Positions 4,582 through 31,291 of a stretch of 32,000 nt of DNA are shown piece by piece. How positions within the stretch are numbered: position 1 is the stretch's first letter; each line of letters opens with the position of its first letter. Below the pieces are notes generated by a model, which saw nothing but the letters and a program-made list of their open reading frames with translations, searched no databases and had not been told where the DNA came from. Source of the stretch: Nanobdellota archaeon (lineage in GTDB: Archaea; Nanobdellota; Nanobdellia; Nanobdellales; Nanobdellaceae); assembly GCA_042850255.1 (NCBI GenBank), contig AP031373.1, positions 120,001 through 152,000 of the forward strand, written 5' to 3'. A program made the position numbers and the translations under genes.

Positions 4582-5547
4582 TTATTTTTCTCTATAACTA
4601 TTTAATTTCTCTAAATAATAATTATCTTCCTTCTCACATAATTCTTCCATCTTTTTATTTATTTCTTTTTTATCTAATATAGATTTCCAGAATTCAATAT
4701 TATTATTTATGTTTTCTAGATATTTTATACTTTCTGTTGGATTTATATAAATTTTAGTATGTTTACATTCGTAATATATAATAGAGTCTTTAATGTTAAA
4801 TTTTTTATTATTCAATTCTTTTTGCATACATGCTAAAGAATAGAGTCCTTTAATTATATCCGGATTATTATAATATTTAATTATAGAAGATCTATTTTCA
4901 CAAAATTCTTTAAATATTTTTTCTGATTCTTTATCCTTTATCCAACCAATACCTTTTCTATTTTCTATATCATTACAACTCTTTTTTAATAAATCTTCTG
5001 GTAAAAATGGTAAAACATAATATAATAATATCTCTTTATTTCCTACATTTGGTATTATATAATCGTTATATTTATAGAAAGAACTATTTATTACAATAGT
5101 AGGACATCCCATGTTTTTAATATCTTCATATTTTGGCAATCTTTTATTTCTTTCTATATAATCCTTTATTTTATCTTCATATTCTTCCGCTATCTTTTCT
5201 CTAAGTTTTAATGATAAATTAGTAAGATATAGAATTATAGCCCTTTCAGGATCCTTTATAGCAATATTAAATAAATAAGGTTTTAATACTTCTTTTAGAG
5301 AATCTTTTGCTATTTAAAATAATGATTCTTCTATTAATAAATCCAAATCCTTATAAGAGTAATTATTATTTTTAGCTATTTCATCAAATATAATTTTTCT
5401 TATTTTCATTATATCTTCATCTAATAAATATTCTACAGTATAAACTATCAGATCTTTGAGTATATCACTATCTGGAATAGAAGAAACTATTAATCTAAGT
5501 TTCTCTTTTATTCCTTCATATATAAATTCATTCGACTCTTCAGACAT
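4582..5547 (-). pseudogene. Member 0 of the ~310-aa paralog family, interrupted by one in-frame TAA (5314-5316)
   Basis: Track ORFs 5314..5547 and 4582..5139 are in the same frame. My manual translation of 5140-5313 has no further stop, and the listed start at 5139 is only a TTG. The joined 321 codons match family length and motifs (YIIPNV…LLYYVLPFL…IGWIKDKESEKIFKEFCENRSSIIKYY…NINNNIEFW). Confidence 0.6.
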
Positions 5548-5595
5548 TCTAAAATAATATTAAAAAGCTTTAAATTCTTTATTACTACACTATAA

Positions 5596-6546
5596 CTAAT
5601 AAATTTTATAATAATTTTTATTTAAAACTTTCCCAGCTAATCTATACCAAAATAAGATATTTTCATTTATATTTCTTAGATTCTCTATATAACTTTTCTC
5701 ATTTTCTGAACTATTATTTAATACAATATTCCATCGTAAATCAAAATTTTTTAAATTATTGTTATCTAAATCAAGGATTATTCTAAGATATCCAACTTCA
5801 TTAATTTTATTATAAAAACTGTTTAAATATATTTCAAAATCTTCATTTATATATTTCTTATAATATTTTATTATAGATTCTGGATTGTTATAGTATTCTC
5901 TAAAAACTATGTATGGACTAAAACTGGCAAAATATTTTATTATATATCCTTTTTCTATATCTTCATAAATTTTTTTCATTATGTGATCAGGTATAGATGG
6001 GAGAATAGATAATAATGTTTTTGTTCTTCTAATTATTGGAAAATAATAATTATCACTAATATTATAAAATACTTCTGGATTTTTACTATATATATCTTCT
6101 GATATATTCAATTTACCACTTTCTCTTATATTTGATAATATATCTATAAAATTATCTATATCTTCGATACTAACAGGTTTTCTATTTATTCCAATTTCAT
6201 ATATATCTTTATGTATTAATTCTAAAGTATAAAAAGAGATATAAAATCTTATACAAGTACCTCTACTGTTACAAAATAATTTATAAAAATCTTCTTTAGT
6301 TTTTATTTCTTGTAATAATTTATCTATATAATCTTTAGCTTCCTTATATAATGTATTTTTTATTATATTACTTAAATTCTCTTCTCCATGTCTTTTTCCT
6401 TTTATTATATCTTTTGCTGTTTTTTCTATTATATCTTTTTTAGCTTCCTTTAGATAATAATTTATAATATTTGTATTATTTTCCTTAATTTTATAGTAAT
6501 TATTAATTATATGATCTATTTTATTTCTTATATCAATCTTTTTCAT
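5596..6546 (-). CDS. Paralog family member 1 (316 aa), unknown function
   Basis: Shares family motifs: YYFPII…LLSILPSIPDHI…FREYYNNPESIIKYYKKY…NINENILFWY. Confidence 0.7.
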   Translation of the reverse strand: MKKIDIRNKIDHIINNYYKIKENNTNIINYYLKEAKKDIIEKTAKDIIKGKRHGEENLSNIIKNTLYKEAKDYIDKLLQEIKTKEDFYKLFCNSRGTCIRFYISFYTLELIHKDIYEIGINRKPVSIEDIDNFIDILSNIRESGKLNISEDIYSKNPEVFYNISDNYYFPIIRRTKTLLSILPSIPDHIMKKIYEDIEKGYIIKYFASFSPYIVFREYYNNPESIIKYYKKYINEDFEIYLNSFYNKINEVGYLRIILDLDNNNLKNFDLRWNIVLNNSSENEKSYIENLRNINENILFWYRLAGKVLNKNYYKIY

Positions 6547-6601
6547 AATTATTATTTATAAAATATATTTAACTTTATTACGCAGTTATATTTATATTAT
6601 C

Positions 6602-7519
6602 CTATATCCTATCTTTACAATTATCTATAATATTATACCAAAATCTGATATTATTATTTACATTTCTAATAGTTTCTATATATTTCAAAACTTCTAAGAA
6701 ATTAAAATTATTATTTTCATACATTTTATTTATAATAGCTTTTTCTATATCACGCCATGCATCACAATATTCTTCATATCTTGCATTCTTTCTAATATCA
6801 GAAACTTCTTTTACTATATCATGATACTCGGTAAAAACATATAATCCCTTCGCTATATCTTTATTTAATTGTTCATAATATTTTATTATTGAACATTGGT
6901 TATTACAATATTCTTTAAATATTTCTAAAGCTTTTTCATTATTTAAAAAGTTCCTTGCTTTTTCTGAATTTTTATTATTTACTGCATTACAGTACTCATC
7001 TTTTATATTTTCACTAATAGATGGTATAACTTGTAAAATTTCTTCTTTATTTTTTATTACTGGAAGGATATAACCACTTACTCTAATAGTTGCATTTCTT
7101 AATTCTTTTTTATTTACTTTTGATACTATATCACTTGATAATAAATGTCCAAGTGATTTAGTATAATATATTACCTTTTTTCTATATATTTCATAATCAT
7201 TTGTATTTTCAAGCTCTATAAAAATGTTTACACAATTTTTATATGTTAAATTTGCTAAATTATATGATATACTATATATTAATGCATCTTCTAAAGATTT
7301 AAATTTTTTTAAATATTTTTCTTCCAACATAAATTTTATTAAATCCTCCAAATTTCCATCATCTTCTATTTTTAATACATTATCATATAGAATTTTCAAA
7401 AGTTTATTTTTAGATTCTTCTATATAATTATAAATTAAATCATTATTATTGGTATCTGCTTTAAAATGCTCGTTTATTATTTTTTTAATACTATCTTTTA
7501 AACTTTTATTCGATATCAT
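6602..7519 (-). CDS. Paralog family member 2 (305 aa), unknown function
   Basis: Family motifs: GYILPVI…ILQVIPSISENI…NNEKALEIFKEYCNNQCSIIKYY…NVNNNIRFWY. Confidence 0.7.
   Translation of the reverse strand: MISNKSLKDSIKKIINEHFKADTNNNDLIYNYIEESKNKLLKILYDNVLKIEDDGNLEDLIKFMLEEKYLKKFKSLEDALIYSISYNLANLTYKNCVNIFIELENTNDYEIYRKKVIYYTKSLGHLLSSDIVSKVNKKELRNATIRVSGYILPVIKNKEEILQVIPSISENIKDEYCNAVNNKNSEKARNFLNNEKALEIFKEYCNNQCSIIKYYEQLNKDIAKGLYVFTEYHDIVKEVSDIRKNARYEEYCDAWRDIEKAIINKMYENNNFNFLEVLKYIETIRNVNNNIRFWYNIIDNCKDRI
6875..6946. repeat. 72-nt tract near-identical to 7794-7865 (copy A)
   Basis: Direct comparison gives 71/72 identical positions, with the mismatch at 6897 versus 7816. The flanking sequence of the two paralogs is strongly diverged. 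Confidence 0.85.
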
Positions 7520-8441
7520 AATCTTTTAAACATTTTATAGACATTTCGAGCCAGAAAGCAATATTACCATTAGTATTCTCCAATACTTCTATAGCCTTTA
7601 GCATATTATAAATGTTTTTATTATTATTTTCAATTATTATATATTTTCCAACAGATTTCCAAATTCTTACTAATTTATCATATTTATTTGGCCCCTTACT
7701 TTCTTCTAATTCTTTGGATTTACTATACAAATTCTCAGGTACACTTTTTAAATATCTTAAATATTCATCAAACGATTTATCTACATATTTCTTATAATAT
7801 TTTATTATTGAACATGGGTTATTACAATATTCTTTAAATATTTCTAAAGCTTTTTCATTATTTAACCATTCAATTTCTTGATTATTTTCTATTTCTCTAC
7901 AAAATTTTTTCTTTATATCATGTCTAATCGATGGAAGTATATGTAACAAATCTATTATATTTTCTTTTTCATCTTTATAATTAATTTTTGGAAATATATA
8001 GTCATATCTGATTATTATTTTATCACTACTTTTACATCTTATTTTATCTATATCGTCTCTTCTTAAAGACATACCGGTACTCCTTAAATATTCTATAAGT
8101 CTTTCCCTACAATCATTTACTCTCAATATATCTAATTGTAAATTGTATGAATTCTTTTTATGCATATTTTCTATAGAAATAATAGATATAGATGTTTTAA
8201 TTAATTCATCTAAAGATTCGGAATTTACTTTATTTACTAAATCTTCATCTAAATATTTTTTAATTATATTAATTATTATATTTTTAATATCTTCTATACT
8301 ATAATTATAAGTATTTTTCAAATTTTCATTAATATTATTTTTTAAATAATCTGCAGATTCCTTAACATAATTTTTTATATATTTATACTTTTTATTAATG
8401 GGTTTATTAATTATACTATTAATATAATCTTGTATATCCAT
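7506..8441 (-). CDS. Paralog family member 3 (311 aa), unknown function
   Basis: Family motifs: YIFPKI…LLHILPSIRHDI…NNEKALEIFKEYCNNPCSIIKYY…NTNGNIAFWL. Its 3' end overlaps the start of member 2 by 14 nt. Confidence 0.7.
   Translation of the reverse strand: MDIQDYINSIINKPINKKYKYIKNYVKESADYLKNNINENLKNTYNYSIEDIKNIIINIIKKYLDEDLVNKVNSESLDELIKTSISIISIENMHKKNSYNLQLDILRVNDCRERLIEYLRSTGMSLRRDDIDKIRCKSSDKIIIRYDYIFPKINYKDEKENIIDLLHILPSIRHDIKKKFCREIENNQEIEWLNNEKALEIFKEYCNNPCSIIKYYKKYVDKSFDEYLRYLKSVPENLYSKSKELEESKGPNKYDKLVRIWKSVGKYIIIENNNKNIYNMLKAIEVLENTNGNIAFWLEMSIKCLKDYDIE
7794..7865. repeat. 72-nt tract near-identical to 6875-6946 (copy B)
   Basis: See copy A. The tract encodes NNEKALEIFKEYCNN(Q/P)CSIIKYY. 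Confidence 0.85.
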
Positions 8442-9357
8442 TTTCTATTTTCAAGCAAGTAATTGCAATATTTAACCATCCAAATATATTACTATTAACT
8501 TCCAAAACTCTCTCTATTTTCATTAATTCTTCGACTTTTTTATTATAGATATATTCTAATTCTATTCTCATTCTACTCCTAAAATTTTTTTCATATCTTA
8601 CTCTATCATTCAAACCAGGTTTTATTATATCTTTATATTCTAAAAAATTTTTTAGATATTCGCTAAAATTTGGATCTATGATTTTATTATAATAATCTAA
8701 TATAGAGCATTTATTTTTACAATATTCTTTAAATACTTTTTTAACATCCTCATTTTTTATCCATTCTATTTTATGATCATTCTTGGTTAATTCTTTATAT
8801 ATATTATCTTTTATGTTTCCATACATTGATGGAATTATATATAAAAGATCTTCTAATTTGTTTATTTCAGGAAAATATTTGCCCTTAAAAGTATATAATT
8901 TTGATGTATTAAATCTAGAACACTCAATTTCTGATAAATTTGTATTATTTACTAAAAATCCTATTTCTCTTATATATTTTCTAATTCTTTCTTCACATCC
9001 ATTAATTTTTTTAATATCCTCAATTTTGTTATCTCTAATATATTGAGTTTGTATATCCTTTTTTTGAAAACCTTTATATAGAAGCAGTATAAATTTATCA
9101 GATAAGTCTCCTGGTATCTCTTTTTTCGTAAAACCAAGTCTCCTTAATTCTCTATCTATTATAAAACTCATCAACATATCCAAATAATTAGAATTTTTGT
9201 CTATATATTTCTCAGAAATATCAATTAATTTTTTTATTTCATTATTAATATAATATTTAATTAGAGTATTTTCTAATATATTAGAATCTCCAATATATTC
9301 TTTTATTGAATCCTGTAAGATGTTTCTTATACTAATTTCTAAATCTTCATTATGCAT
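8419..9357 (-). CDS. Paralog family member 4 (312 aa), unknown function
   Basis: Family motifs: KYFPEI…LLYIIPSMYGNI…IEWIKNEDVKKVFKEYCKNKCSILDYY…VNSNIFGWL. Its 3' end overlaps the start of member 3 by 23 nt. Confidence 0.7.
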   Translation of the reverse strand: MHNEDLEISIRNILQDSIKEYIGDSNILENTLIKYYINNEIKKLIDISEKYIDKNSNYLDMLMSFIIDRELRRLGFTKKEIPGDLSDKFILLLYKGFQKKDIQTQYIRDNKIEDIKKINGCEERIRKYIREIGFLVNNTNLSEIECSRFNTSKLYTFKGKYFPEINKLEDLLYIIPSMYGNIKDNIYKELTKNDHKIEWIKNEDVKKVFKEYCKNKCSILDYYNKIIDPNFSEYLKNFLEYKDIIKPGLNDRVRYEKNFRSRMRIELEYIYNKKVEELMKIERVLEVNSNIFGWLNIAITCLKIENGYTRLY

Positions 9358-17127: not shown

Positions 17128-17200
17128 GAATATATCTAGATACTTCTGTATTTATAAACTTTTATCCTATCATAAATTCAAAAATTAGAATGCTATTAAT

Positions 17201-17275
17201 GGACCCGTAGCTCAGCATGGATAGAGCGGTGGCCTCCTAAGCCACAGGTCGGGGGTTCGAATCCCCCCGGGTCCG
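17201..17275 (+). tRNA. tRNA-Arg (anticodon CCT)
   Basis: Manual cloverleaf: GGACCCG/CGGGTCC acceptor, GCTC…GAGC D arm, GTGGC-CTCCTAA-GCCAC anticodon arm, GGGGG-TTCGAAT-CCCCC T arm. It is GC-rich, has no encoded CCA, and is followed by TTTTT. Confidence 0.95.
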
Positions 17276-17280
17276 TTTTT
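17276..17280 (+). terminator. Oligo-T tract immediately after tRNA-Arg
   Basis: TTTTT directly follows the discriminator base. Oligo-T is the usual archaeal termination signal. Confidence 0.4.
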
Positions 17281-17286
17281 AATTAA

Positions 17287-17748
17287 TTACAATAGATTTC
17301 TTTCCTTTAATGTTAATAGAAGTCTTAAAGATTTTACAGCATCCTCTGGAGATTCAAATACTGGTGCATATCTTTCTAAAGATATTTTTATTTGCTCTGT
17401 AAATCCACCTCCATATACTACAAAAACTAATGGTTTTTTATTAATTATTTTCGAAACTTTTTCTGGGAATTTTTCTGTAAAAAAGGATAATTGAGGCAAT
17501 ACAATAGATATTATACCCTCAGTCCTATAATCATTTAATAATATTTCTAAACCTTTTATATATTGATCTTCATTTGCTTGAGCAGTAGTATCTATAGGAT
17601 TATGAAATGAGGAAAAAGAAGGTAAAATTTGTTTTAGTTTTTCTTTTATATCCTCAGGAGTTTCTTGTAAAAGTATATTATTTTGTTCTAACGCATCTGT
17701 AGCTAAAACTCCTTCCCCACCACCATTTGTATAAACATATACTACCAT
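17287..17748 (-). CDS. ADP-forming acetyl-CoA synthetase (ACD) alpha subunit, C-terminal domain encoded as a separate ORF
   Basis: 153 aa starting MVVYVYTNGGGEGVLATDA… This corresponds to the …ITNGGGxGVxAxDA… start of the last alpha-subunit domain and continues to the normal C-terminus (…PVFESPEDAVKSL…). Confidence 0.8.
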   Translation of the reverse strand: MVVYVYTNGGGEGVLATDALEQNNILLQETPEDIKEKLKQILPSFSSFHNPIDTTAQANEDQYIKGLEILLNDYRTEGIISIVLPQLSFFTEKFPEKVSKIINKKPLVFVVYGGGFTEQIKISLERYAPVFESPEDAVKSLRLLLTLKERNLL

Positions 17749-17768
17749 ACTAACAAAATATAATTTCT

Positions 17769-17782
17769 AAAATTTAAAAATT
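17769..17782. promoter_or_regulatory. Shared A/T element (AAAATTTAAAAATT), putative bidirectional TATA box
   Basis: Its centre lies about 27.5 nt from both the ATG at 17803 (+) and the ATG at 17748 (-), within a 54-nt divergent spacer. Confidence 0.4.
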
Positions 17783-17802
17783 GTAAAAGAGAGATAAAGA
17801 AT

Positions 17803-18504
17803 ATGCGTGGATGGTTTGGTAAGAAAAAATATAGTGTACAAGAAATTGAAAGTGAACTAAATAAATTTAGAATATCTATGGAAAAACAACTAAATATAAC
17901 CGGTATTGAACCTCATATAAATGAAATAATACAACTTATAGAAACCAATAGAAAGGACGAAGCAAAAAATAAATTAAATCAAATGAGGAATGAGTTGCAC
18001 GAAATCTTATTTTTAAGAAAAGAAATTTTTAGTAAGTATAAAGATGCTGTTAAACTATTAAGCAATATAATTAGATTGGTTAGTGGAGAAGCTGTAGTAC
18101 ATGTAGGAGGAAATCCAAAAGTAATAGATGCAGAAAAATCTCAGACACTTTTAAAAGAAGAACATCAAAAAATTAAAAAATCATTAGAAAAAATGGAATC
18201 AGATATACGCAGAATTAGAGAAGATATGATTAAAGAAAGAAGATTAAATATAGTAAGTCATGATGAAATATTTCAACGTGCAGTTACGTTTATATCAGGA
18301 TTTAATAAAAATGAAATGTTAAAATATCTTGAAAATGCTAATGGAAATCGAGGAATAATAGTAGAATTAGCTAGAAAATATGGAATACCATATGAAGAAA
18401 ATATCCAAGAATTTATTAAAATATTAGAAGAAAAAGAAAATAAATATGAGGAGTTCCTAAATAAAGATATAAGATTATTGGAAGATATAGAAAATAGATT
18501 ATAA
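17803..18504 (+). CDS. Coiled-coil protein, possible ESCRT-III/PspA-superfamily member (copy A)
   Basis: 233 aa. It has a basic/aromatic N-terminus (MRGWFGKKK), long heptad-like helices and the pattern …IETNRKDEAKNKLNQMR…LRKEIF… reminiscent of the k-G-n-x-x-x-A-k-x-x-L-x-x-k-k hairpin motif. The tail is helical and HTH-like, ending …LLEDIENRL. Confidence 0.4.
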   Translation: MRGWFGKKKYSVQEIESELNKFRISMEKQLNITGIEPHINEIIQLIETNRKDEAKNKLNQMRNELHEILFLRKEIFSKYKDAVKLLSNIIRLVSGEAVVHVGGNPKVIDAEKSQTLLKEEHQKIKKSLEKMESDIRRIREDMIKERRLNIVSHDEIFQRAVTFISGFNKNEMLKYLENANGNRGIIVELARKYGIPYEENIQEFIKILEEKENKYEEFLNKDIRLLEDIENRL

Positions 18505-19374
18505 GTAATAAGAAATTGTTTTTAAATATATCATAAAATCATTCATATTTTTTGCTTCTATTATTCCATATTGCTTAAATAAATTTTTATATACTTCATA
18601 ATCTCCAGCTAATGATGCGGTATGTGAAGAAACTGCAACAGAACCTCTCTTTGTTTTTCCAGATTTTAATACTATTATTGGTTTATTTAATTCCTTTGCG
18701 ATTTCTAAAAATTCTCTACCTTTTCCTTCTTTTAATCCTTCCATATATATAAATATAGCTTTTGTATTTTCATCATTTCTTAATTCTTTCAATATTTCTA
18801 TTTCATCTAAATCAATTTTATTTCCATATGATATAATTTTTGATACTCCTATATCTTTACTTGACAACCATTCCATTACTGCTAAAGATATTGCACCAGA
18901 TTGTGATAATAAAGCAATTTTACCTTTTTTTGGTCTTTTAATTCTAACTTCTTCTACAAAAAATGTATCAAAACCAATATATGGATCATATAAACCCATT
19001 CCATTCGGACCTAAAATTCTTATACCATATTCTTTTGAATATTTTAATATTTCTTCTTCTAAATCTTTTCTTCCAACTTCAGAAAATCCTGCAGATACTA
19101 TTATTCCTAATTTTATTCCTTTTTCTCCAGATTCTTTAATTATCTCAGGAACACCTTCTGCTGGTATAGCGACTATAACACAATCTACAGGTTCTTTTAT
19201 ATCTAAAACAGATTTATAACATTTTAATCCATATAAATTTTCATAATTTGGATTTACAGGATATATTTTACTATTAAATCTTTTTATAAAATTTTTTAAT
19301 ATTATATTTCCAACTTTCCCTTCTTTATTACTTGCTCCAACAATTGCTACAGATTTTATATCGAAGAGTCCCAT
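18499..19374 (-). CDS. ADP-forming acetyl-CoA synthetase (ACD) alpha subunit, N-terminal CoA-binding/ligase-CoA domains encoded as a separate ORF
   Basis: 291 aa. KSVAIVGASNKEGKVGNIILKNF (CoA-binding Rossmann), LSQSGAISLA, and SSHTASLAG (phosphohistidine loop). It ends where the last alpha domain normally begins. Confidence 0.85.
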   Translation of the reverse strand: MGLFDIKSVAIVGASNKEGKVGNIILKNFIKRFNSKIYPVNPNYENLYGLKCYKSVLDIKEPVDCVIVAIPAEGVPEIIKESGEKGIKLGIIVSAGFSEVGRKDLEEEILKYSKEYGIRILGPNGMGLYDPYIGFDTFFVEEVRIKRPKKGKIALLSQSGAISLAVMEWLSSKDIGVSKIISYGNKIDLDEIEILKELRNDENTKAIFIYMEGLKEGKGREFLEIAKELNKPIIVLKSGKTKRGSVAVSSHTASLAGDYEVYKNLFKQYGIIEAKNMNDFMIYLKTISYYL

Positions 19375-19700
19375 AAAACTTTAATATTACATATTTGATC
19401 CTTATATTTTTTTTCACATATCTTACAAAGCATTGCATGTAAATTGTCCAATTTTTTGTCTTTTTCTTTATATAATACTTCTGCAATTTTATATATAATT
19501 TCTAAATCTTCTTTGTCAAATATATAAGACTTCTTTCCTCTAACCCCATTTAAATATTGAGAAACTGCAGCTTGTGTAATTAATAATTTTTCTGCTATAT
19601 CCTTTTGAGATAATTTATATTTATCATAAAGGGTTATAGATAATTCTCTTCTTATTAAGGGTAATATATTTTTTACGAATTCTTCACATCTTATCCCCAT
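19356..19700 (-). CDS. HTH (XRE/COG2522-like) transcriptional regulator with C-terminal Cys motif
   Basis: 114 aa. …LSQKDIAEKLLITQAAVSQYLNGVRGKK… is a helix-turn-helix. There is an N-terminal Cys (GIRCEEF) and a C-terminal CKICEKK…C. Its 3' end overlaps the ACD N-part start by 19 nt. Confidence 0.65.
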   Translation of the reverse strand: MGIRCEEFVKNILPLIRRELSITLYDKYKLSQKDIAEKLLITQAAVSQYLNGVRGKKSYIFDKEDLEIIYKIAEVLYKEKDKKLDNLHAMLCKICEKKYKDQICNIKVLWDSSI

Positions 19701-19804: not shown

Positions 19805-20066
19805 TTAAACATTTATATAGATCTTTTATATTAAAATATCCTGCTTTATAATATCATTATAAAACAATATAGCAATAGGACCTGAAGAAGTATATAATAA
19901 ATGAATAAAATAAAGATAATAGATAATTTTAAAATATATACAATTAAAAAAATATAAAATTATTTCTATAACATATCTACAGTTTTTAGATTTTTATTTG
20001 ATTGTTATGGCATTTATTATTCATATAATAAAATTTATAAATAATAAAAAAGTCTTAAAAAAAAAT

Positions 20067-20864
20067 ATGGATAATGAGAGAGATATCATAAATGAGTTAA
20101 TAAAAACATATAATGAAATAAAAAATGAACTAGGGATAGGATCAAAAGAAATAGAGGAGGCAATACAAGAACTTGAAAAAAATGATACTAGAGATGCAAG
20201 AATTAAATTAGATCAAGCTGCCAAAAGATTTAGAGATAACATATTATATTGGAGAAAAAAATTTATAAGTGAATATAAAAAAATATATGAAGATTTAAAG
20301 AGAATAGAAAAAGATGTAAAAGGTAATTATAGTCAACACTTAGATAATCTAGAATCACTAGAAAAAGAGGTAAAAAAAGATATAAAAAAAGCTAAAGAGA
20401 TTGTTAAAGATTTAGAAAAAATATCTGTTGATATAGCTCAGTTAAGAAGTTATATTAACAGTTATGAAAAAGATTTGAGAAGTAATAAATTTGTTATATT
20501 AAGAGAAGAACCTGAATTTCAAAAATTAAAAGAAGTATTGCAAAATTCCAAGCTTGAGTACAATAGAGAATTAGCATTAATAAGCAAGATAGCTATTATA
20601 TTAGAGGGACTAGAACAAGGGAGAAAAGATTATAGATTAGAGCGTCAAGACTTAGCATTTCTAATTAATTTGTTTAAAACTTTATCAGCAGAAGTTAAGA
20701 AATTTGAGGAATCTACAAATTTTGAAAAATTAGAAGAATTAGAGAAAAAATATGAAGAAAAATCTAAAAATCTTGAAAATGCTATAAATAAGTTAAATGA
20801 AAAACTATTTCCACATAAAAAGGAGCATAGCTCACAAAAAGCAACTTGGTTAAAACGCTTTTAA
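20067..20864 (+). CDS. Coiled-coil protein, paralog of 17803..18504 (copy B), possible ESCRT-III/PspA-superfamily member
   Basis: It aligns with copy A: …KEIEEAIQELEKNDTRDARIKLDQ…WRKKFISEYKK… versus …INEIIQLIETNRKDEAKNKLNQ…LRKEIFSKYKD…. I place the start at ATG 20067 because TTTATAAATA (20034-20043) lies about 28 nt upstream. The track ORF starts at TTG 19998, and ATG 20007 is an alternative. Confidence 0.4.
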   Translation: MDNERDIINELIKTYNEIKNELGIGSKEIEEAIQELEKNDTRDARIKLDQAAKRFRDNILYWRKKFISEYKKIYEDLKRIEKDVKGNYSQHLDNLESLEKEVKKDIKKAKEIVKDLEKISVDIAQLRSYINSYEKDLRSNKFVILREEPEFQKLKEVLQNSKLEYNRELALISKIAIILEGLEQGRKDYRLERQDLAFLINLFKTLSAEVKKFEESTNFEKLEELEKKYEEKSKNLENAINKLNEKLFPHKKEHSSQKATWLKRF

Positions 20865-23138: not shown

Positions 23139-23197
23139 AAATGATGAATGCCGAGTATGCAGATTTATAAGTATGTTATAACATATATTACTGAATG
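23139..23197 (+). ncRNA. Candidate C/D box sRNA filling the speH-like/taw1 spacer
   Basis: There is a perfect C box aATGATGA (23140-23147), a 12-nt relatively GC-rich spacer (atgccgagtatg), a D'-like CAGA (23160-23163) and a perfect D box CTGA (23191-23194). No convincing C' box is present. Total length is about 55-60 nt. Confidence 0.3.
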
Positions 23198-24235
23198 GAT
23201 AATACAATAAATGTTGAAAAAGAAAAATGGACTGTTCATGATGAAAAAACTAAAAAACAATTAGAAAAAGCTGGATATGGATTATATAATCACTCTGCTG
23301 TTGAAATTTGTCATTGGACAAAAGAAGCAATTGTAAATGGAAGAGTTTGCTATAAAAATAAATTTTATGGAATAGATACTGCTGGATGCATGGAAATGTC
23401 ACAATCCATTATGTGGTGTACAAATAGATGTATATATTGTTGGAGACCAAATACAAAATTCGAACCATATTATAATATTTTACCAGAAGATAAAGTAGAT
23501 TCTCCTGAAGAAACTATGGAAAAATTAAGAGAACTAAGGAAAAAGTTATTAATAGGATATTATGGAAATCCAAAAGCAAATAAAAAATTATTGGATAGAT
23601 TTATTGATAAACCTACACATATTACATTTTCTTTATCTGGAGAACCATTATTATATCCATATGTACCAGAAACAATATTATATATTAAAAAGAACTGGCC
23701 ATGGGTAAGATCTATATTTGTAGTAACAAATGGTCAAGTTCCTGAAGCATTGGAAAAAATGATAAAATTAAATGCATACCCTACACAATTATATATATCA
23801 TTTACAGGTCCAAATAAAGAGATATATAAAAAAGTATCTGCTCCTATATATAAAGATTATTGGGAAAGATTCCTAAAATCTATAGAAATTGCATCTAAAA
23901 TGAAAGTTAGAAGAGTTGCGAGAATAACATTATTAAAAGGAATAAATGATGATCCAAAATACTTTGATGATTGGGCAAAGATAATAGAGATATATAATCC
24001 TCATTTCATTGAAGTAAAATCTTATTCATATCTAGGATATTCAAGAATAAGGTTAAAGTATGAAAATGTACCAAAAATGGAAGATGTAAGGAATTTCTCT
24101 AAAGGATTGGCAGAAAAATTGCCTGGATATGAAATATTTAAAGAGGATATAGATTCAAGAGTTGTATTAATAAAAAATAGAAGACCCGGTATGGATATTG
24201 ATCCTATAATAAGAAGTGTAGAGCCAAACGTATAA
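23195..24235 (+). CDS. taw1: tRNA 4-demethylwyosine synthase (radical SAM, Taw1/TYW1)
   Basis: 346 aa. …YNHSAVEICHWTKEAIVNGRVCYKNKFYGIDTAGCMEMSQSIMWCTNRCIYCWRP… has the Taw1-specific N-terminal Cys cluster followed by the CxxxCxxC radical-SAM motif. Confidence 0.9.
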   Translation: MDNTINVEKEKWTVHDEKTKKQLEKAGYGLYNHSAVEICHWTKEAIVNGRVCYKNKFYGIDTAGCMEMSQSIMWCTNRCIYCWRPNTKFEPYYNILPEDKVDSPEETMEKLRELRKKLLIGYYGNPKANKKLLDRFIDKPTHITFSLSGEPLLYPYVPETILYIKKNWPWVRSIFVVTNGQVPEALEKMIKLNAYPTQLYISFTGPNKEIYKKVSAPIYKDYWERFLKSIEIASKMKVRRVARITLLKGINDDPKYFDDWAKIIEIYNPHFIEVKSYSYLGYSRIRLKYENVPKMEDVRNFSKGLAEKLPGYEIFKEDIDSRVVLIKNRRPGMDIDPIIRSVEPNV

Positions 24236-29389: not shown

Positions 29390-31291
29390 TTAACTATTTT
29401 TTATATTTTTTCCTTTTTCGATTATTTGGTTTGTCTCTTCATAAAGATTTTCCAATATTTTTTTGTAATCTTCTTTCCCTTCAGATATTTTATCCATAAT
29501 ATCTTCTAAATCTCTTGTTCTTTTCTCAGATACAAAATCTCCAAAATTTTTTTCTAAGAAATCATAAACATTAATTCCTAATTTTGTTGGGATAAGGTTA
29601 TTACTTTTATCTATTACATATCCTCTTCCCATTACTTTTTTTACTATTATAGCGTATGTAGAAGGTCTTCCTATATCCCTTTCCTTCATTAAATTTATTA
29701 TATCTGCTTGAGAATATAACCTAACTTTAGGTATTTTCCTACCTATAATATCCTTTATTTTTATTGGTTTTATTGGATTATTCTTCATTACATTTATTCT
29801 ATATGGATATATTAAATCCCATCCATGTTCTTTTACATCTTTTAATCCTTCTATTTGTATTTCTTTTTCTATAACTGGAATTTTTATCCTTTCTATAAAT
29901 TTATTTATAATTACATATTTCATTTGAGATTGAATGAATCTTCTAAATATCAGATCATAAATTATATAGTGATATCTTGTCATATTTATAAAAACTTCTA
30001 TTTCTCCATTTTCTATTGCTTCTCTTAATTGTTCTGAATCCAAAGGTCTAGTAGGTCTTATAGCTTCATGAGCTCCACCTTCTCCCCATGATCTACCAAC
30101 AAATAATTCTTCTCCAAATTTTTCAGAAATATAATCTTTTGCTATAGAGATTCCTAATGGAGATATTCTAGTAGAATCTGTTCTATGATATGTAATTAAT
30201 GCAGATTCGAATAATTCTTGTAATATTTGCATTATTCTATCTACCCCTATTTTTAATACCATATTTGCATCTTGTAAAATTGTACTAGTTATATAGGGAG
30301 GTAATGGATCTATTTTTTCTTCTACCTCTTTATATTCTAAAACCTGTATTTCTTTATCTTTTAAATTTTTTATTATTTTATTTATTGTTCTTCTATCCTT
30401 TGCATCAGTATCTATTACTAATTTCCTATCATCTTCTAATATCAATTCTAAAATATATGATCTTGATCTATTTCTTTCAATAAATCTATCAATTATCCAA
30501 CCTAAAACAGGAGTTTGAACTCTTCCAGCAGATAACCAATTTTTATTAAAATATTTTTGGACTATTTGGGATAAACTAAATCCTAACCATCTATCTTCTA
30601 TTCTTCTAACAACTTGTGATTTTACTAAATTTAAATCTATATCCCTTAAATTTTGTAAAGCATTTAATATTGCAGTTTTTGTTACTTCATGAAATTCTGC
30701 TCTTTTTATATTTCTATTAAATGGGTATAAAACTAAATATAATGAATATGCAATCATTTCACCTTCTGTATCAGGATCTGTTCCTATTATTACCTGGTCT
30801 ACTTCTTGTGCTAATTCTTGTAAAGCTTTAATCCTATTTATAGAATCGTCTATATTTGTAGAACCACAATATGGACATTTTCCATCTTTATATTCAGTAA
30901 ATTGAGCTCCACAATTCAAACATTTTTTTATAGTATTATAATATGGATAAAAATCTTGTTCTTTTCTTTCTATACCAAATAAACCTATTGGATCTGTAGT
31001 TAATTCTAATATATGACCTTTGGAGGCGGTAATAATTAAATGAGCATTACCTAACGATACTTCATATATTTTTATTCCATTTATATTTCTTATAGAAGGT
31101 CTACCAAAAAATGATGATATAGTTCTAGCCTTATTAGGAGATTCAACTATAAATAATATAACTTTCATTAATTCTTGTACACTTTTTTCAATTTTTCCAG
31201 TTTTAATATCTTTCACTATTTCCCTTTCTTCTTCAATTTCTTTTTTTATTTTTTCTATATCTATTTCTGAAAAATTCTTAAAAATATACAT
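29390..31291 (-). CDS. rgy: Reverse gyrase, topoisomerase IA module encoded as a stand-alone ORF (split reverse gyrase)
   Basis: 633 aa. Toprim start …LFIVESPNKARTISSFFGRPS…, the inserted zinc ribbon CLNCGAQFTEYKDGKCPYCGS, and the active-site motif …ALITYHRTDSTRISP…. No helicase-like domain lies upstream; the adjacent upstream gene is aEF-1beta. Confidence 0.85.
   Translation of the reverse strand: MYIFKNFSEIDIEKIKKEIEEEREIVKDIKTGKIEKSVQELMKVILFIVESPNKARTISSFFGRPSIRNINGIKIYEVSLGNAHLIITASKGHILELTTDPIGLFGIERKEQDFYPYYNTIKKCLNCGAQFTEYKDGKCPYCGSTNIDDSINRIKALQELAQEVDQVIIGTDPDTEGEMIAYSLYLVLYPFNRNIKRAEFHEVTKTAILNALQNLRDIDLNLVKSQVVRRIEDRWLGFSLSQIVQKYFNKNWLSAGRVQTPVLGWIIDRFIERNRSRSYILELILEDDRKLVIDTDAKDRRTINKIIKNLKDKEIQVLEYKEVEEKIDPLPPYITSTILQDANMVLKIGVDRIMQILQELFESALITYHRTDSTRISPLGISIAKDYISEKFGEELFVGRSWGEGGAHEAIRPTRPLDSEQLREAIENGEIEVFINMTRYHYIIYDLIFRRFIQSQMKYVIINKFIERIKIPVIEKEIQIEGLKDVKEHGWDLIYPYRINVMKNNPIKPIKIKDIIGRKIPKVRLYSQADIINLMKERDIGRPSTYAIIVKKVMGRGYVIDKSNNLIPTKLGINVYDFLEKNFGDFVSEKRTRDLEDIMDKISEGKEDYKKILENLYEETNQIIEKGKNIKNS

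Follow-up and report, generated by a model that had tools for sequence, protein, structure and literature searches.

A conserved split in the alpha-subunit gene of ADP-forming acetyl-CoA synthetase in Nanobdellota archaeon YN1 and its relatives

Archaeal ADP-forming acetyl-CoA synthetases (ACD) such as ACD1 of Ca. Korarchaeum cryptofilum (4xyl/4xym) and PH0766 of Pyrococcus (2csu) are heterotetramers. Their alpha subunit, described by the family model TIGR02717, carries domains 1, 2 and 5, and their beta subunit carries domains 3 and 4. In the genome of Nanobdellota archaeon YN1, two minus-strand open reading frames that flank a gene on the opposite strand each resemble a different part of this alpha subunit. 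Do the two still make up one functional subunit or are they the remains of a broken gene, and did the gene between them cause the break? A first-pass annotation of the sequence had favored a functional split gene over a disrupted pseudogene. We examined the locus within the 32-kb stretch of YN1 DNA that was analyzed (hereafter the window; Table 1) and compared it with related loci.

Table 1. Features of the split ACD alpha locus and its surroundings (positions within the window)
Feature	Position	Strand	Product	Basis
tRNA-Arg(CCT), convergent with the C-terminal half; synteny marker	17200..17276	+		ARAGORN, Rfam
C-terminal half of ACD alpha, domain 5 (CoA-ligase)	17287..17748	-	153 aa	Pfam PF19045, TIGR02717, fold model
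TATA-like element TTTTTAAA in 54-nt divergent intergenic region	17773..17780	.		sequence
Intervening gene, mostly helical, coiled-coil-like	17803..18504	+	233 aa	paralogue and synteny comparison
N-terminal half of ACD alpha, domains 1 and 2	18499..19374	-	291 aa	Pfam, PDB and TIGR02717 matches
Predicted transcriptional regulator, HTH_3 type	19356..19700	-	114 aa	Pfam HTH_3
Second coiled-coil ORF, between tRNA-Val and an SFM1-like gene	19998..20864	+	288 aa	BLASTP E 2e-6

Two reading frames cover the domains of the alpha subunit

Both reading frames lie where the first-pass annotation had placed them, 750 nt apart (17749..18498). The longer one contains domain 1, the Rossmann-type CoA-binding domain (PF13380 CoA_binding_2, E 6e-24, plus PF02629), and the flavodoxin-like domain 2 (PF13607 Succ_CoA_lig, model positions 1-137/138, E 3e-45). 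It aligns with residues 7-292 of 4xyl_A (E 1e-70) and covers positions 4-288 of the 447 positions of TIGR02717 with an E value of 2e-99, against 3e-14 for sucCoAalpha. The phosphohistidine swinging loop (SHTxxxAG) is present as SSHTASLAG; this motif lines up with the His loops of 4xyl and 2csu and is kept in all relatives in our alignment. The Pfam, 4xyl_A and TIGR02717 alignments thus confirm that the N-terminal part is complete through this loop. Its relatives are 291-295 aa long and 62-93% identical.

The shorter reading frame matches PF19045 (Ligase_CoA_2) from model position 2 and aligns with residues 296-443 of 2csu_A, residues 302-445 of 4xyl_A and positions 298-444 of TIGR02717. Its N-terminus, MVVY, lies just before the TNGGGxGV loop. 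These matches bear out the earlier description of a protein that opens at this loop and runs to the normal C-terminus of the subunit. Its homologues (n=30) are 146-156 aa long, and the TNGGG, GVL..D and NPxDxT motifs show little or no variation across all 30. AlphaFold2 models the protein with a pLDDT of 94 and a pTM of 0.90. In Foldseek comparisons this model superimposes on domain 5 of ACD alpha (TMq 0.85-0.88, rmsd 1.8-2.3 Å), with a weaker structural match to the C-terminal part of the succinyl-CoA synthetase (SCS) beta chain. The C-terminal half is therefore predicted to form an autonomous and complete domain 5.

At the junction, the N-terminal half ends in YLKTISYYL followed by a stop and the C-terminal half begins with MVVYVYTNGGG; the closest unsplit relative (452 aa) reads ...YLQVFSYFGKRRVKKLLIYTNGGG across the same region. 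Relative to that protein ~4 linker residues are absent, and relative to TIGR02717 ~9 model positions. The two frames jointly span positions 4-288 and 298-444 of the model with no domain lost and no overlap, and their combined length is 444 aa vs 452 aa for the unsplit protein. As judged from these alignments, the cut falls within the linker that joins domains 2 and 5. The earlier suggestion that nothing is missing or duplicated holds as regards duplication; the interdomain linker, by ~4-9 residues, is absent, and aligning the junction with ACD alpha subunits reveals no loss of an essential segment. Neither half behaves as a single ~450-470-aa chain scoring above the TIGR02717 cut-off of 567 bits: they score 333 and 95.5 bits, respectively.

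The same split in related genomes

The split is old and family-wide, not peculiar to YN1. An identical breakpoint is found at ~50 Nanopusillaceae loci, including those of Nanopusillus, Nanobsidianus, Nanobdella and NZ13-N, and the clusters to which the halves belong have members from N. acidilobi and Nanobsidianus. The boundaries of the reading frames are the same throughout, at 52-93% identity. The two halves are adjacent in most relatives, with spacers of -4, 2, 4, 5, 6, 27, 30, 31 or 38 nt (2 nt in the Nanopusillus group), or of ~750-800 nt with an inserted gene. All three relative reading frames occur among the loci, and in-frame stops are present. Among copies not truncated by the end of a contig, the N-terminal half is intact in 34 of 35 cases and the C-terminal half in 48 of 49.

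This recurrence bears directly on whether the split could be an error of sequencing or assembly. Long-read assemblies do yield false split genes, and two loci from other organisms (L149 and possibly L150) look like such cases. For YN1 this explanation is refuted by independent replication: its genome is closed and was built from hybrid Illumina and Nanopore data, and the same split is present in dozens of independent assemblies, in single-cell genomes and in two further closed genomes. We rejected L149 as an instance of the same split, its breakpoint being different. Short domain-5 matches in other lineages were likewise considered as further splits, and most proved to be fragments of full-length proteins.

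Selection is purifying on both halves. Between YN1 and its closest relative, KM4331-08, dN/dS (NG86) is 0.12 for the N-terminal and 0.12 for the C-terminal half; between YN1 and Nanobdella, both of which carry the insertion, it is 0.20 and 0.13, respectively, dS being near saturation in distant pairs so that the ratios are quantitative for the closest comparisons only. Conservation is on par with that of neighboring housekeeping genes: the halves are 86% (N-terminal) and 84% (C-terminal) identical to those of KM4331-08, compared with 88% for PEP synthase and 84% for a radical-SAM wyosine-synthesis gene (23195..24235). These values, together with the shared ORF boundaries, the intact catalytic motifs and the high-confidence domain model of the C-terminal half, largely refute the idea that the fragments are a decaying pseudogene left behind by genome reduction. 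Such an idea would draw on the reduced genome, from which most of central metabolism is missing according to the YN1 paper, on the unrelated gene between the fragments, on one metagenomic contig (L112) in which the N-terminal half is disrupted and on 'Ca. Nanopusillus massiliensis', for which there is only a 99-aa partial call; we regard it as very unlikely. The proposal of a functional split gene is instead supported by the shared breakpoint, the intact copies, the dN/dS of 0.12-0.20 and the predicted fold.

The closest unsplit relative (L004) encodes its 452-aa alpha subunit next to a beta subunit. All other ACD alpha subunits above the listed score range are ~440-480 aa long, except for a small number that are shorter, one of which is labeled partial. 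In a neighbor-joining (NJ) tree with 13 unsplit sequences besides L004, L004 and the split forms make up a clade with 100% support, and 62% of bootstraps recover the split forms as monophyletic. A placement of L004 inside the split clade (78%), obtained by NJ with one distant outgroup, gave way to a sister position once the 13 unsplit sequences were used. The tree lends moderate support to a single origin of the split in the ancestor of the Nanopusillaceae/Nanobdellaceae.

The intervening gene and the expression of the two halves

The plus-strand reading frame between the halves, noted earlier as a coiled-coil gene, is real, and its 3' end overlaps the stop codon of the N-terminal half by 6 nt. 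It returned nothing significant in Pfam, NCBIfam or PHROGs, and AlphaFold2 run on the single sequence gives a helical model of low confidence (pLDDT 66). It is a paralogue of the second coiled-coil ORF in the window (BLASTP E 2e-6; DNA repeats). This second copy is a YN1-only insertion that is missing at the syntenic site in two related loci (L005 and L001), both of which share with YN1 the tRNA-Arg(CCT) gene downstream of the C-terminal half.

At the same site Nanobdella has a 247-aa ORF in the same orientation and with the same 6-nt overlap. The YN1 and Nanobdella proteins are not significantly similar in BLASTP (E 0.22), and we consider the genes homologous on account of their position, orientation and overlap and of the weak similarity of each protein to the second YN1 paralogue. 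The gene was seen in YN1 and Nanobdella and is absent from ~45 other loci. Since most relatives have the halves adjacent, the opposite-strand gene entered an already split gene at a later time and, contrary to the first-pass annotation, is not what divided ACD alpha.

Most relatives have a predicted regulator of the HTH_3 type directly in front of the N-terminal half. In YN1 the two genes share 19 nt, at the start of the N-terminal half, and are therefore probably co-transcribed; a TATA-like sequence, TTTTAAATA, is found 30 nt upstream of the ATG of the regulator. For the C-terminal half, the first-pass annotation had described a TATA-like element about 27 nt upstream of an ATG of its own. We find such an element, TTTTTAAA, between two divergent ATGs: ~28 nt separate it from that of the C-terminal half (17748) and 27 nt from that of the inserted gene (17803). 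Elements of the TTTAWAW type occur 27-32 nt upstream of the ATGs of first genes across the window, and in KM4331-08 TTTTTAAAT directly follows the stop codon of the N-terminal half. In a genome of ~22% G+C a lone AT-rich match to a TATA box is weak evidence, and we regard TTTTTAAA as a candidate promoter that may drive leaderless transcripts in one or both directions. A scan for bacterial promoters and terminators, which is not apt for an archaeon, returned no more sites than in shuffled sequence.

If in YN1 and Nanobdella free domain 5 has left the operon that carries the N-terminal half and shares this promoter, in its two directions, with the coiled-coil gene, it could act as a separately regulated, limiting subunit that switches ACD on and off. 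We think this distinctly unlikely. Were it true, ACD activity, possibly the main source of substrate-level ATP, would be set by the production of domain 5. More speculatively, pieces made by the symbiont might combine with ACD or SCS subunits derived from the host through the cytoplasmic bridge.

A proposed three-polypeptide enzyme and its relation to known systems

We consider it likely that the two halves form a stably split alpha subunit within an ACD of three polypeptides, [1-2]/[5]/[3-4], whose assembly and activity we infer. The split would have arisen once, in the Nanopusillaceae/Nanobdellaceae ancestor after its divergence from the lineage with the closest unsplit gene, and its original form would have been two adjacent cistrons in an operon of HTH regulator, N-terminal half and C-terminal half, joined in some relatives by beta and pyruvate:ferredoxin oxidoreductase (POR) genes. 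Later on, a coiled-coil gene that evolves fast would have been inserted antisense between the halves in the lineages of YN1 and Nanobdella, where the C-terminal half may now be expressed from a TATA-like promoter of its own, with a leaderless mRNA as the probable transcript. The enzyme would assemble non-covalently, with [1-2] supplying the CoA site and the phosphohistidine loop, [5] the second 'power helix' and the substrate side of the active site, and [3-4] being the ATP-grasp beta subunit. Together with POR it would convert pyruvate to acetyl-CoA and on to acetate and ATP, or run in reverse. In published structures from the ACD superfamily, subdomain 2 of one monomer and subdomain 5 of the opposing one form a composite active site (PMC11494057; PMC13018889). 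Assembly from three pieces appears feasible because the domain 5 of an intact ACD already works in trans, where it fills out the active site of the other protomer; in SCS, too, domains 1 and 2 do not share a chain with domain 5.

A full-length alpha subunit could in principle still be made from the two genes by frameshift or readthrough recoding, RNA trans-splicing or split-intein splicing. Nanoarchaeum equitans joins tRNA halves in trans, its split DNA polymerase (PolB) is joined by a split intein, and the spacer of the Nanopusillus group is a mere 2 nt. The spacers of -4 to 38 nt and the varying relative frames are not what a conserved recoding signal would leave, in-frame stops intervene, and in YN1 and Nanobdella 750-800 nt with an opposite-strand gene separate the halves. 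The combined 444 aa leave no room for intein segments beside the 452 aa of the unsplit protein, and the C-terminal half continues after its initiator Met with Val, which is not one of the nucleophilic residues (Cys, Ser or Thr) expected at the +1 position in split-intein splicing. Restoration of a single chain is in our view exceedingly improbable.

The three-polypeptide model requires a beta subunit. Relatives encode a 193-197-aa ATP-grasp protein with a conserved His (LHKT) and a VDAR motif, among them the metagenome-assembled genome closest to YN1 (L012), and in three loci (L006-L008) its gene adjoins POR genes. A pattern-based genome scan found beta in N. acidilobi, Nst1 and KM4331-08 and returned none for Nanobdella aerobiophila. 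In YN1, no partner beta (PF13549) lies within the window, and neither beta nor POR was present in the short Logan contigs (run DRR287338) reached from the genes at the window ends. A homology search with the beta of L004 missed existing Nanopusillaceae betas owing to its word prefilter and is uninformative for YN1 and Nanobdella. In the published N. acidilobi proteome there are no values for the N-terminal half (Nps_02631), for the ATP-grasp protein Nps_01715 or for the adjacent, uncharacterized Nps_02630, and added acetate was without effect on growth (Wurch 2016). By its position, Nps_02630 is probably the C-terminal half.

Alternatively, the halves could be conserved and no longer form a joint ACD, one serving for instance as a CoA-binding or regulatory protein or with another partner. 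Annotation pipelines treat them as unrelated proteins, the N-terminal half has the architecture of SCS alpha, and stand-alone CoA_binding_2 proteins of ~140 aa are known from the PDB (1y81, 2d59). One locus (L130) keeps the C-terminal half with beta and has no N-terminal half upstream, and the lack of a Nanobdella beta among the results of the pattern scan and the undetected N. acidilobi proteins would also fit. However, the halves co-occur at every other sufficiently flanked locus, both retain the residues of the shared active site (the His loop in one, TNGGG and NPxD in the other), and dN/dS is similarly low in the two. The beta subunits of relatives have their catalytic residues and are often clustered with the halves and POR. 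Separate roles are therefore unlikely, and we favor the three-polypeptide ACD.

Such an enzyme would resemble the heterotetrameric archaeal ACDs in that the best PDB and NCBIfam matches of both halves are ACD alpha subunits, the phosphohistidine loop and domain-5 motifs are kept and relatives encode a separate ATP-grasp beta; it differs in being a three-gene enzyme whose alpha consists of two polypeptides, [1-2] and [5], that have lost part of the linker and each score under the family cut-off. With SCS, alpha(1,2)/beta(3,4,5), it shares a chain break at the same 2|5 boundary, a domain 5 supplied by another chain and an N-terminal half (291 aa) matching SCS alpha in length and architecture. 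Unlike in SCS, where one chain carries domain 5 together with the ATP-grasp domains, domain 5 is free-standing here, and both halves are of ACD type in sequence. The same five subdomains also recur in Nmar_0206 [1-2-5-3-4], Nmar_1309 [3-4-1-2-5], PatZ and DddX, which, unlike the split ACD alpha, are single-chain fusions or permutations. Domain shuffling is a recognized trait of the ACD superfamily, and a free-standing domain 5 is absent from the arrangements listed for it (PMC11494057; PMC13018889).

Genes published as split in Nanoarchaeota include those for reverse gyrase, GatE, archaeosine TGT, RpoB, a large helicase, DPH2 and others (Podar 2013; Wurch 2016). The topoisomerase half of reverse gyrase sits in the same 32-kb window. 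As with those genes, ACD alpha is intact elsewhere in archaea, and in these same organisms it is encoded by two ORFs, with a conserved breakpoint and presumed post-translational assembly. It differs in being an enzyme of central metabolism and in its absence from N. equitans, so that the split is specific to the terrestrial lineage. In most relatives its halves still lie side by side; the majority of the pairs listed have locus numbers far apart. Neither Podar 2013 nor Wurch 2016 includes ACD alpha among its tabulated split genes, and our literature text searches found no report of a split, in line with the first-pass remark that the enzyme is not known to have been described as such.

ACD alpha extends the list of split genes in nanoarchaea by a metabolic enzyme, and the extant loci form a series from an intact gene through adjacent cistrons (with a 4-nt overlap or 2-38 nt apart) to separation by an inserted gene and dispersal. 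If the pieces assemble as proposed, the natural [1-2]/[5]/[3-4] layout would bridge the ACD and SCS arrangements, and the split layout suggests that a covalent link between domain 2 and domain 5 is dispensable. The C-terminal half is still annotated as 'hypothetical protein' or 'acetyltransferase', and metabolic reconstructions of these symbionts can consequently miscount ACD. Published tables record the absence of ATP synthase in the close relatives Nst1 and N. acidilobi, and the function of ACD therefore bears on the energy independence of these symbionts from their hosts.

The two halves and their junction

The alpha subunit of ADP-forming acetyl-CoA synthetase (ACD) in Nanobdellota archaeon YN1, an ectosymbiont of Sulfurisphaera ohwakuensis with a closed genome (PMC11420986), is encoded by two separate ORFs, both present as the first-pass annotation had claimed. 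The YN1 genome paper is silent on ACD and on split genes (PMC11420986). The window has a G+C content of ~22% and carries archaeal markers, namely a type IV pilin, L7Ae, aEF-1beta and a radical-SAM wyosine-synthesis gene.

Positions of the ACD alpha halves and other features in the window
Feature	Position	Strand	Description
ACD alpha C-terminal half	17287..17748	-	153 aa; Ligase_CoA_2 match from model position 2
TATA-like element TTTTTAAA	17773-17780		in 54-nt divergent spacer
Inserted gene	17803..18504	+	in 750-nt gap between halves; 233-aa ORF; 3' end overlaps N-terminal half stop by 6 nt
ACD alpha N-terminal half	18499..19374	-	291 aa; CoA_binding_2 and complete Succ_CoA_lig domain
Second coiled-coil ORF	19998..20864	+	between tRNA-Val and SFM1-like gene; inserted in YN1 only
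Radical-SAM wyosine-synthesis gene	23195..24235		
Five tandem paralogous ORFs	4582..9357	-	185-316 aa
Reverse gyrase topoisomerase half	29390..31291	-	633 aa

The N-terminal half aligns end-to-end with Ca. Korarchaeum ACD1 alpha (4xyl_A) over residues 7-292 (E 1e-70), phosphohistidine loop included, and with its Pfam matches comprises complete domains through that loop, as had been proposed. The C-terminal half aligns to 2csu_A (residues 296-443) and 4xyl_A (residues 302-445) and, also as proposed, starts at the boundary of the last domain. Of the 447 positions of NCBIfam TIGR02717, the N-terminal half spans 4-288 and the C-terminal half 298-444. Aligning the junction with unsplit homologues, a check that the first-pass annotation had recommended, leaves the interdomain linker as the sole segment absent. 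The N-terminal half ends in YLKTISYYL followed by a stop and the C-terminal half opens with MVVYVYTNGGG, while the closest unsplit relative reads ...YLQVFSYFGKRRVKKLLIYTNGGG. Both halves score below the TIGR02717 cut-off of 567 bits (333 and 95.5 bits), so that pipelines call them 'CoA-binding protein' and 'hypothetical protein' or 'acetyltransferase', respectively. The Nanobdella halves are misleadingly named 'ACD I subunit alpha' and 'ACD II subunit alpha'.

In the window, a TTTAWAW-type element lies 27-32 nt before the ATG of most first genes of transcription units. This spacing is typical of leaderless archaeal mRNAs, implying that YN1 transcripts may be mostly leaderless. The C-terminal half has its own ATG, with the putative element TTTTTAAA 28 nt away (~27 nt had been claimed); the inserted gene's ATG is 27 nt from this element. 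Directly ahead of the N-terminal half there is no TTTAWAW-type element; the HTH gene that overlaps it has one.

Elsewhere in the window, one ORF matches positions 562-1172 of 1172 of TIGR01054 (E 2e-237) and corresponds to one piece of the split reverse gyrase already published for nanoarchaea; no helicase half lies within the window. The tandem paralogous ORFs belong to no Pfam family (pairwise BLASTP E 1e-6 to 1e-25) and look like a locally expanded gene family.

Conservation of the split among relatives

Homology searches identified ~25 N-terminal halves (291-295 aa, 62-93% identical) and 30 C-terminal halves (146-156 aa, 52-88% identical), beneath which solely unsplit alphas of ~440-480 aa were ranked. 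The clusters contain Nanopusillus acidilobi, Nanobsidianus stetteri, Nanobdella aerobiophila and NZ13-N and bear the same names, with 'Ligase-CoA domain-containing protein' as a further one for the C-terminal half. For 'Candidatus Nanopusillus massiliensis' the N-terminal-half cluster holds only a 99-aa 'partial' CoA-binding protein, which could mean either a disrupted gene or a flaw of annotation.

The first-pass annotation had suggested looking for the split in relatives, and the breakpoint is common to the ~50 split loci gathered from a metagenome scan and fetched contigs. At every locus the N-terminal half ends in ...[SAT][YFI][YFLI][LI] (...SYLRK in NZ13-N) and the C-terminal half opens with M[VKI][VI][YC][IV]YTNGGG. 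The spacers between halves measure -4, 2 (17 loci), 4, 5, 6, 27, 30, 31 or 38 nt, with relative frames of 0, 1 or 2. This variability rules out both a conserved recoding signal and sequencing error and shows two cistrons maintained through many local changes. Judged from these sequences, the split is old and family-wide.

Among copies not cut by a contig end, 34 of 35 N-terminal and 48 of 49 C-terminal halves are intact. Between YN1 and its closest relative, the MAG KM4331-08, dN/dS (NG86) is 0.12 for each half, and between YN1 and Nanobdella it is 0.20 for the N-terminal and 0.13 for the C-terminal half, dS being saturated in more distant pairs. The halves, 86% and 84% identical between YN1 and KM4331-08, equal in conservation the neighbouring PEP synthase and radical-SAM wyosine-synthesis genes (88% and 84%). 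The TNGGG, GVL..D and NPxDxT motifs are invariant or almost so. AlphaFold2, run on a 30-sequence alignment, predicts the C-terminal half to be a compact alpha/beta domain (pLDDT 94, pTM 0.90), which Foldseek places on ACD alpha domain 5 (2csu, 4ybz, 4xyl; TMq 0.85-0.88, rmsd 1.8-2.3 A), with a weaker match to the C-terminal part of succinyl-CoA synthetase (SCS) beta chains (TMq ~0.64). The intact copies, low dN/dS, kept motifs and predicted fold support the proposal of a functional split gene rather than a pseudogene.

Order of events and the inserted gene

The closest unsplit gene (452 aa, 59% identical) adjoins a 202-aa beta at locus L004, which belongs to a related archaeon; the Hef helicase of the latter shares 54% identity with its counterpart on a Nanopusillaceae contig. 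In a neighbor-joining tree with 13 further unsplit sequences, this gene groups with all split forms at 100%. Within that clade, 62% of bootstraps recover the split forms as monophyletic (NJ only), which fits a single split event with moderate support.

In relatives the halves are usually adjacent, preceded by a small HTH regulator gene, and this gene and the start of the N-terminal half overlap. The 750-nt gap of YN1 does hold a plus-strand gene, as described; however, the notion that this gene split the subunit does not stand, as the split long predates it and most relatives have adjacent halves. An opposite-strand gene between the halves occurs only in YN1 and Nanobdella, with identical orientation and 6-nt overlap. 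KM4331-08 groups with YN1 (96% bootstrap) yet lacks the inserted gene, therefore requiring either a single insertion that was later lost or two separate ones. Its 30-nt spacer starts with TTTTTAAAT, also found ahead of the YN1 C-terminal half.

The two intervening proteins are barely alignable to each other, and the second YN1 coiled-coil ORF resembles both (E 2e-6 and 6e-4); terminal repeats were looked for around this ORF and none were found. By sequence comparison the coiled-coil family evolves fast and seems to be spreading into intergenic sites. Besides insertion, a further kind of separation is found at locus L130 (2915..4342) of a metagenomic relative: no N-terminal half occurs up to 2.9 kb ahead of the C-terminal half, and downstream of the latter come a 144-aa ORF carrying an HWHIDYL motif and, after it, beta.

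A putative three-polypeptide enzyme and its physiology

In superfamily structures, SCS is arranged as alpha(1,2)/beta(3,4,5) and ACD as alpha(1,2,5)/beta(3,4), with fused forms [1-2-5-3-4] and [3-4-1-2-5], and subdomain 2 of one monomer and subdomain 5 of the opposing one form the composite active site between them (PMC11494057; PMC13018889). Domain 5 therefore always acts in trans, and a cut in the 2-5 linker should for this reason be tolerated. We propose that the nanoarchaeal ACD would be assembled from three polypeptides, [1-2]/[5]/[3-4]. A free-standing domain 5 is absent among the arrangements given in these papers (PMC11494057; PMC13018889). An exhaustive HMMER search over 1.84 billion cluster representatives returned one representative for all C-terminal halves (252 bits), the next scoring 96 bits. 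Other short domain-5 matches, mostly in clusters that also hold full-length proteins, were set aside, as was a singleton from another organism (L149) whose breakpoint differs and which could be an assembly error. Another singleton (L150, 3095..5200), on a 1.6-Mb contig of a G+C-rich organism encoding SelA ~0.5 kb upstream, is a fused-type ACD with one in-frame TGA and an ATG directly after it at the same 2|5 linker, giving [1-2]/[5-3-4]; this may reflect either a genuine independent split or a fault in the assembly.

One Nanopusillus sp. contig carries the N-terminal half, C-terminal half, beta and pyruvate:ferredoxin oxidoreductase (POR) alpha and beta in order, and beta adjoins POR at two further loci (L006 and L007). 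This clustering suggests a route from pyruvate through acetyl-CoA to acetate and ATP. The opposite direction, acetate activation for gluconeogenesis, has been proposed (Podar 2013). ATP synthase is listed as absent from Nst1 (Podar 2013) and N. acidilobi (Wurch 2016), and growth of the latter is unaffected by acetate (Wurch 2016). In the table of Wurch 2016, proteomic values are missing for its N-terminal half (Nps_02631) and ATP-grasp subunit (Nps_01715), and also for the 'uncharacterized' Nps_02630, which adjoins Nps_02631 and from that position is probably the C-terminal half. At L004 (4292..7964), ACD alpha and beta come right after a gene for aldehyde:ferredoxin oxidoreductase, stops overlapping starts, a gene order that suggests an aldehyde to acid/acyl-CoA module and not the POR linkage of Nanopusillaceae.

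The first-pass annotation knew of no description of this enzyme as split. ACD alpha is not in the split-gene tables of Podar 2013 or Wurch 2016 (Supplementary Table 1), is unmentioned as split in Jarett 2018, and full-text searches for split acetyl- or acyl-CoA synthetase genes in Nanoarchaeota or Nanopusillus returned no other report. Taken together, the observation is confirmed and its interpretation as a split gene supported. The split ACD alpha varies two themes that are already known, the splitting of genes in nanoarchaea and the shuffling of domains within the ACD superfamily.
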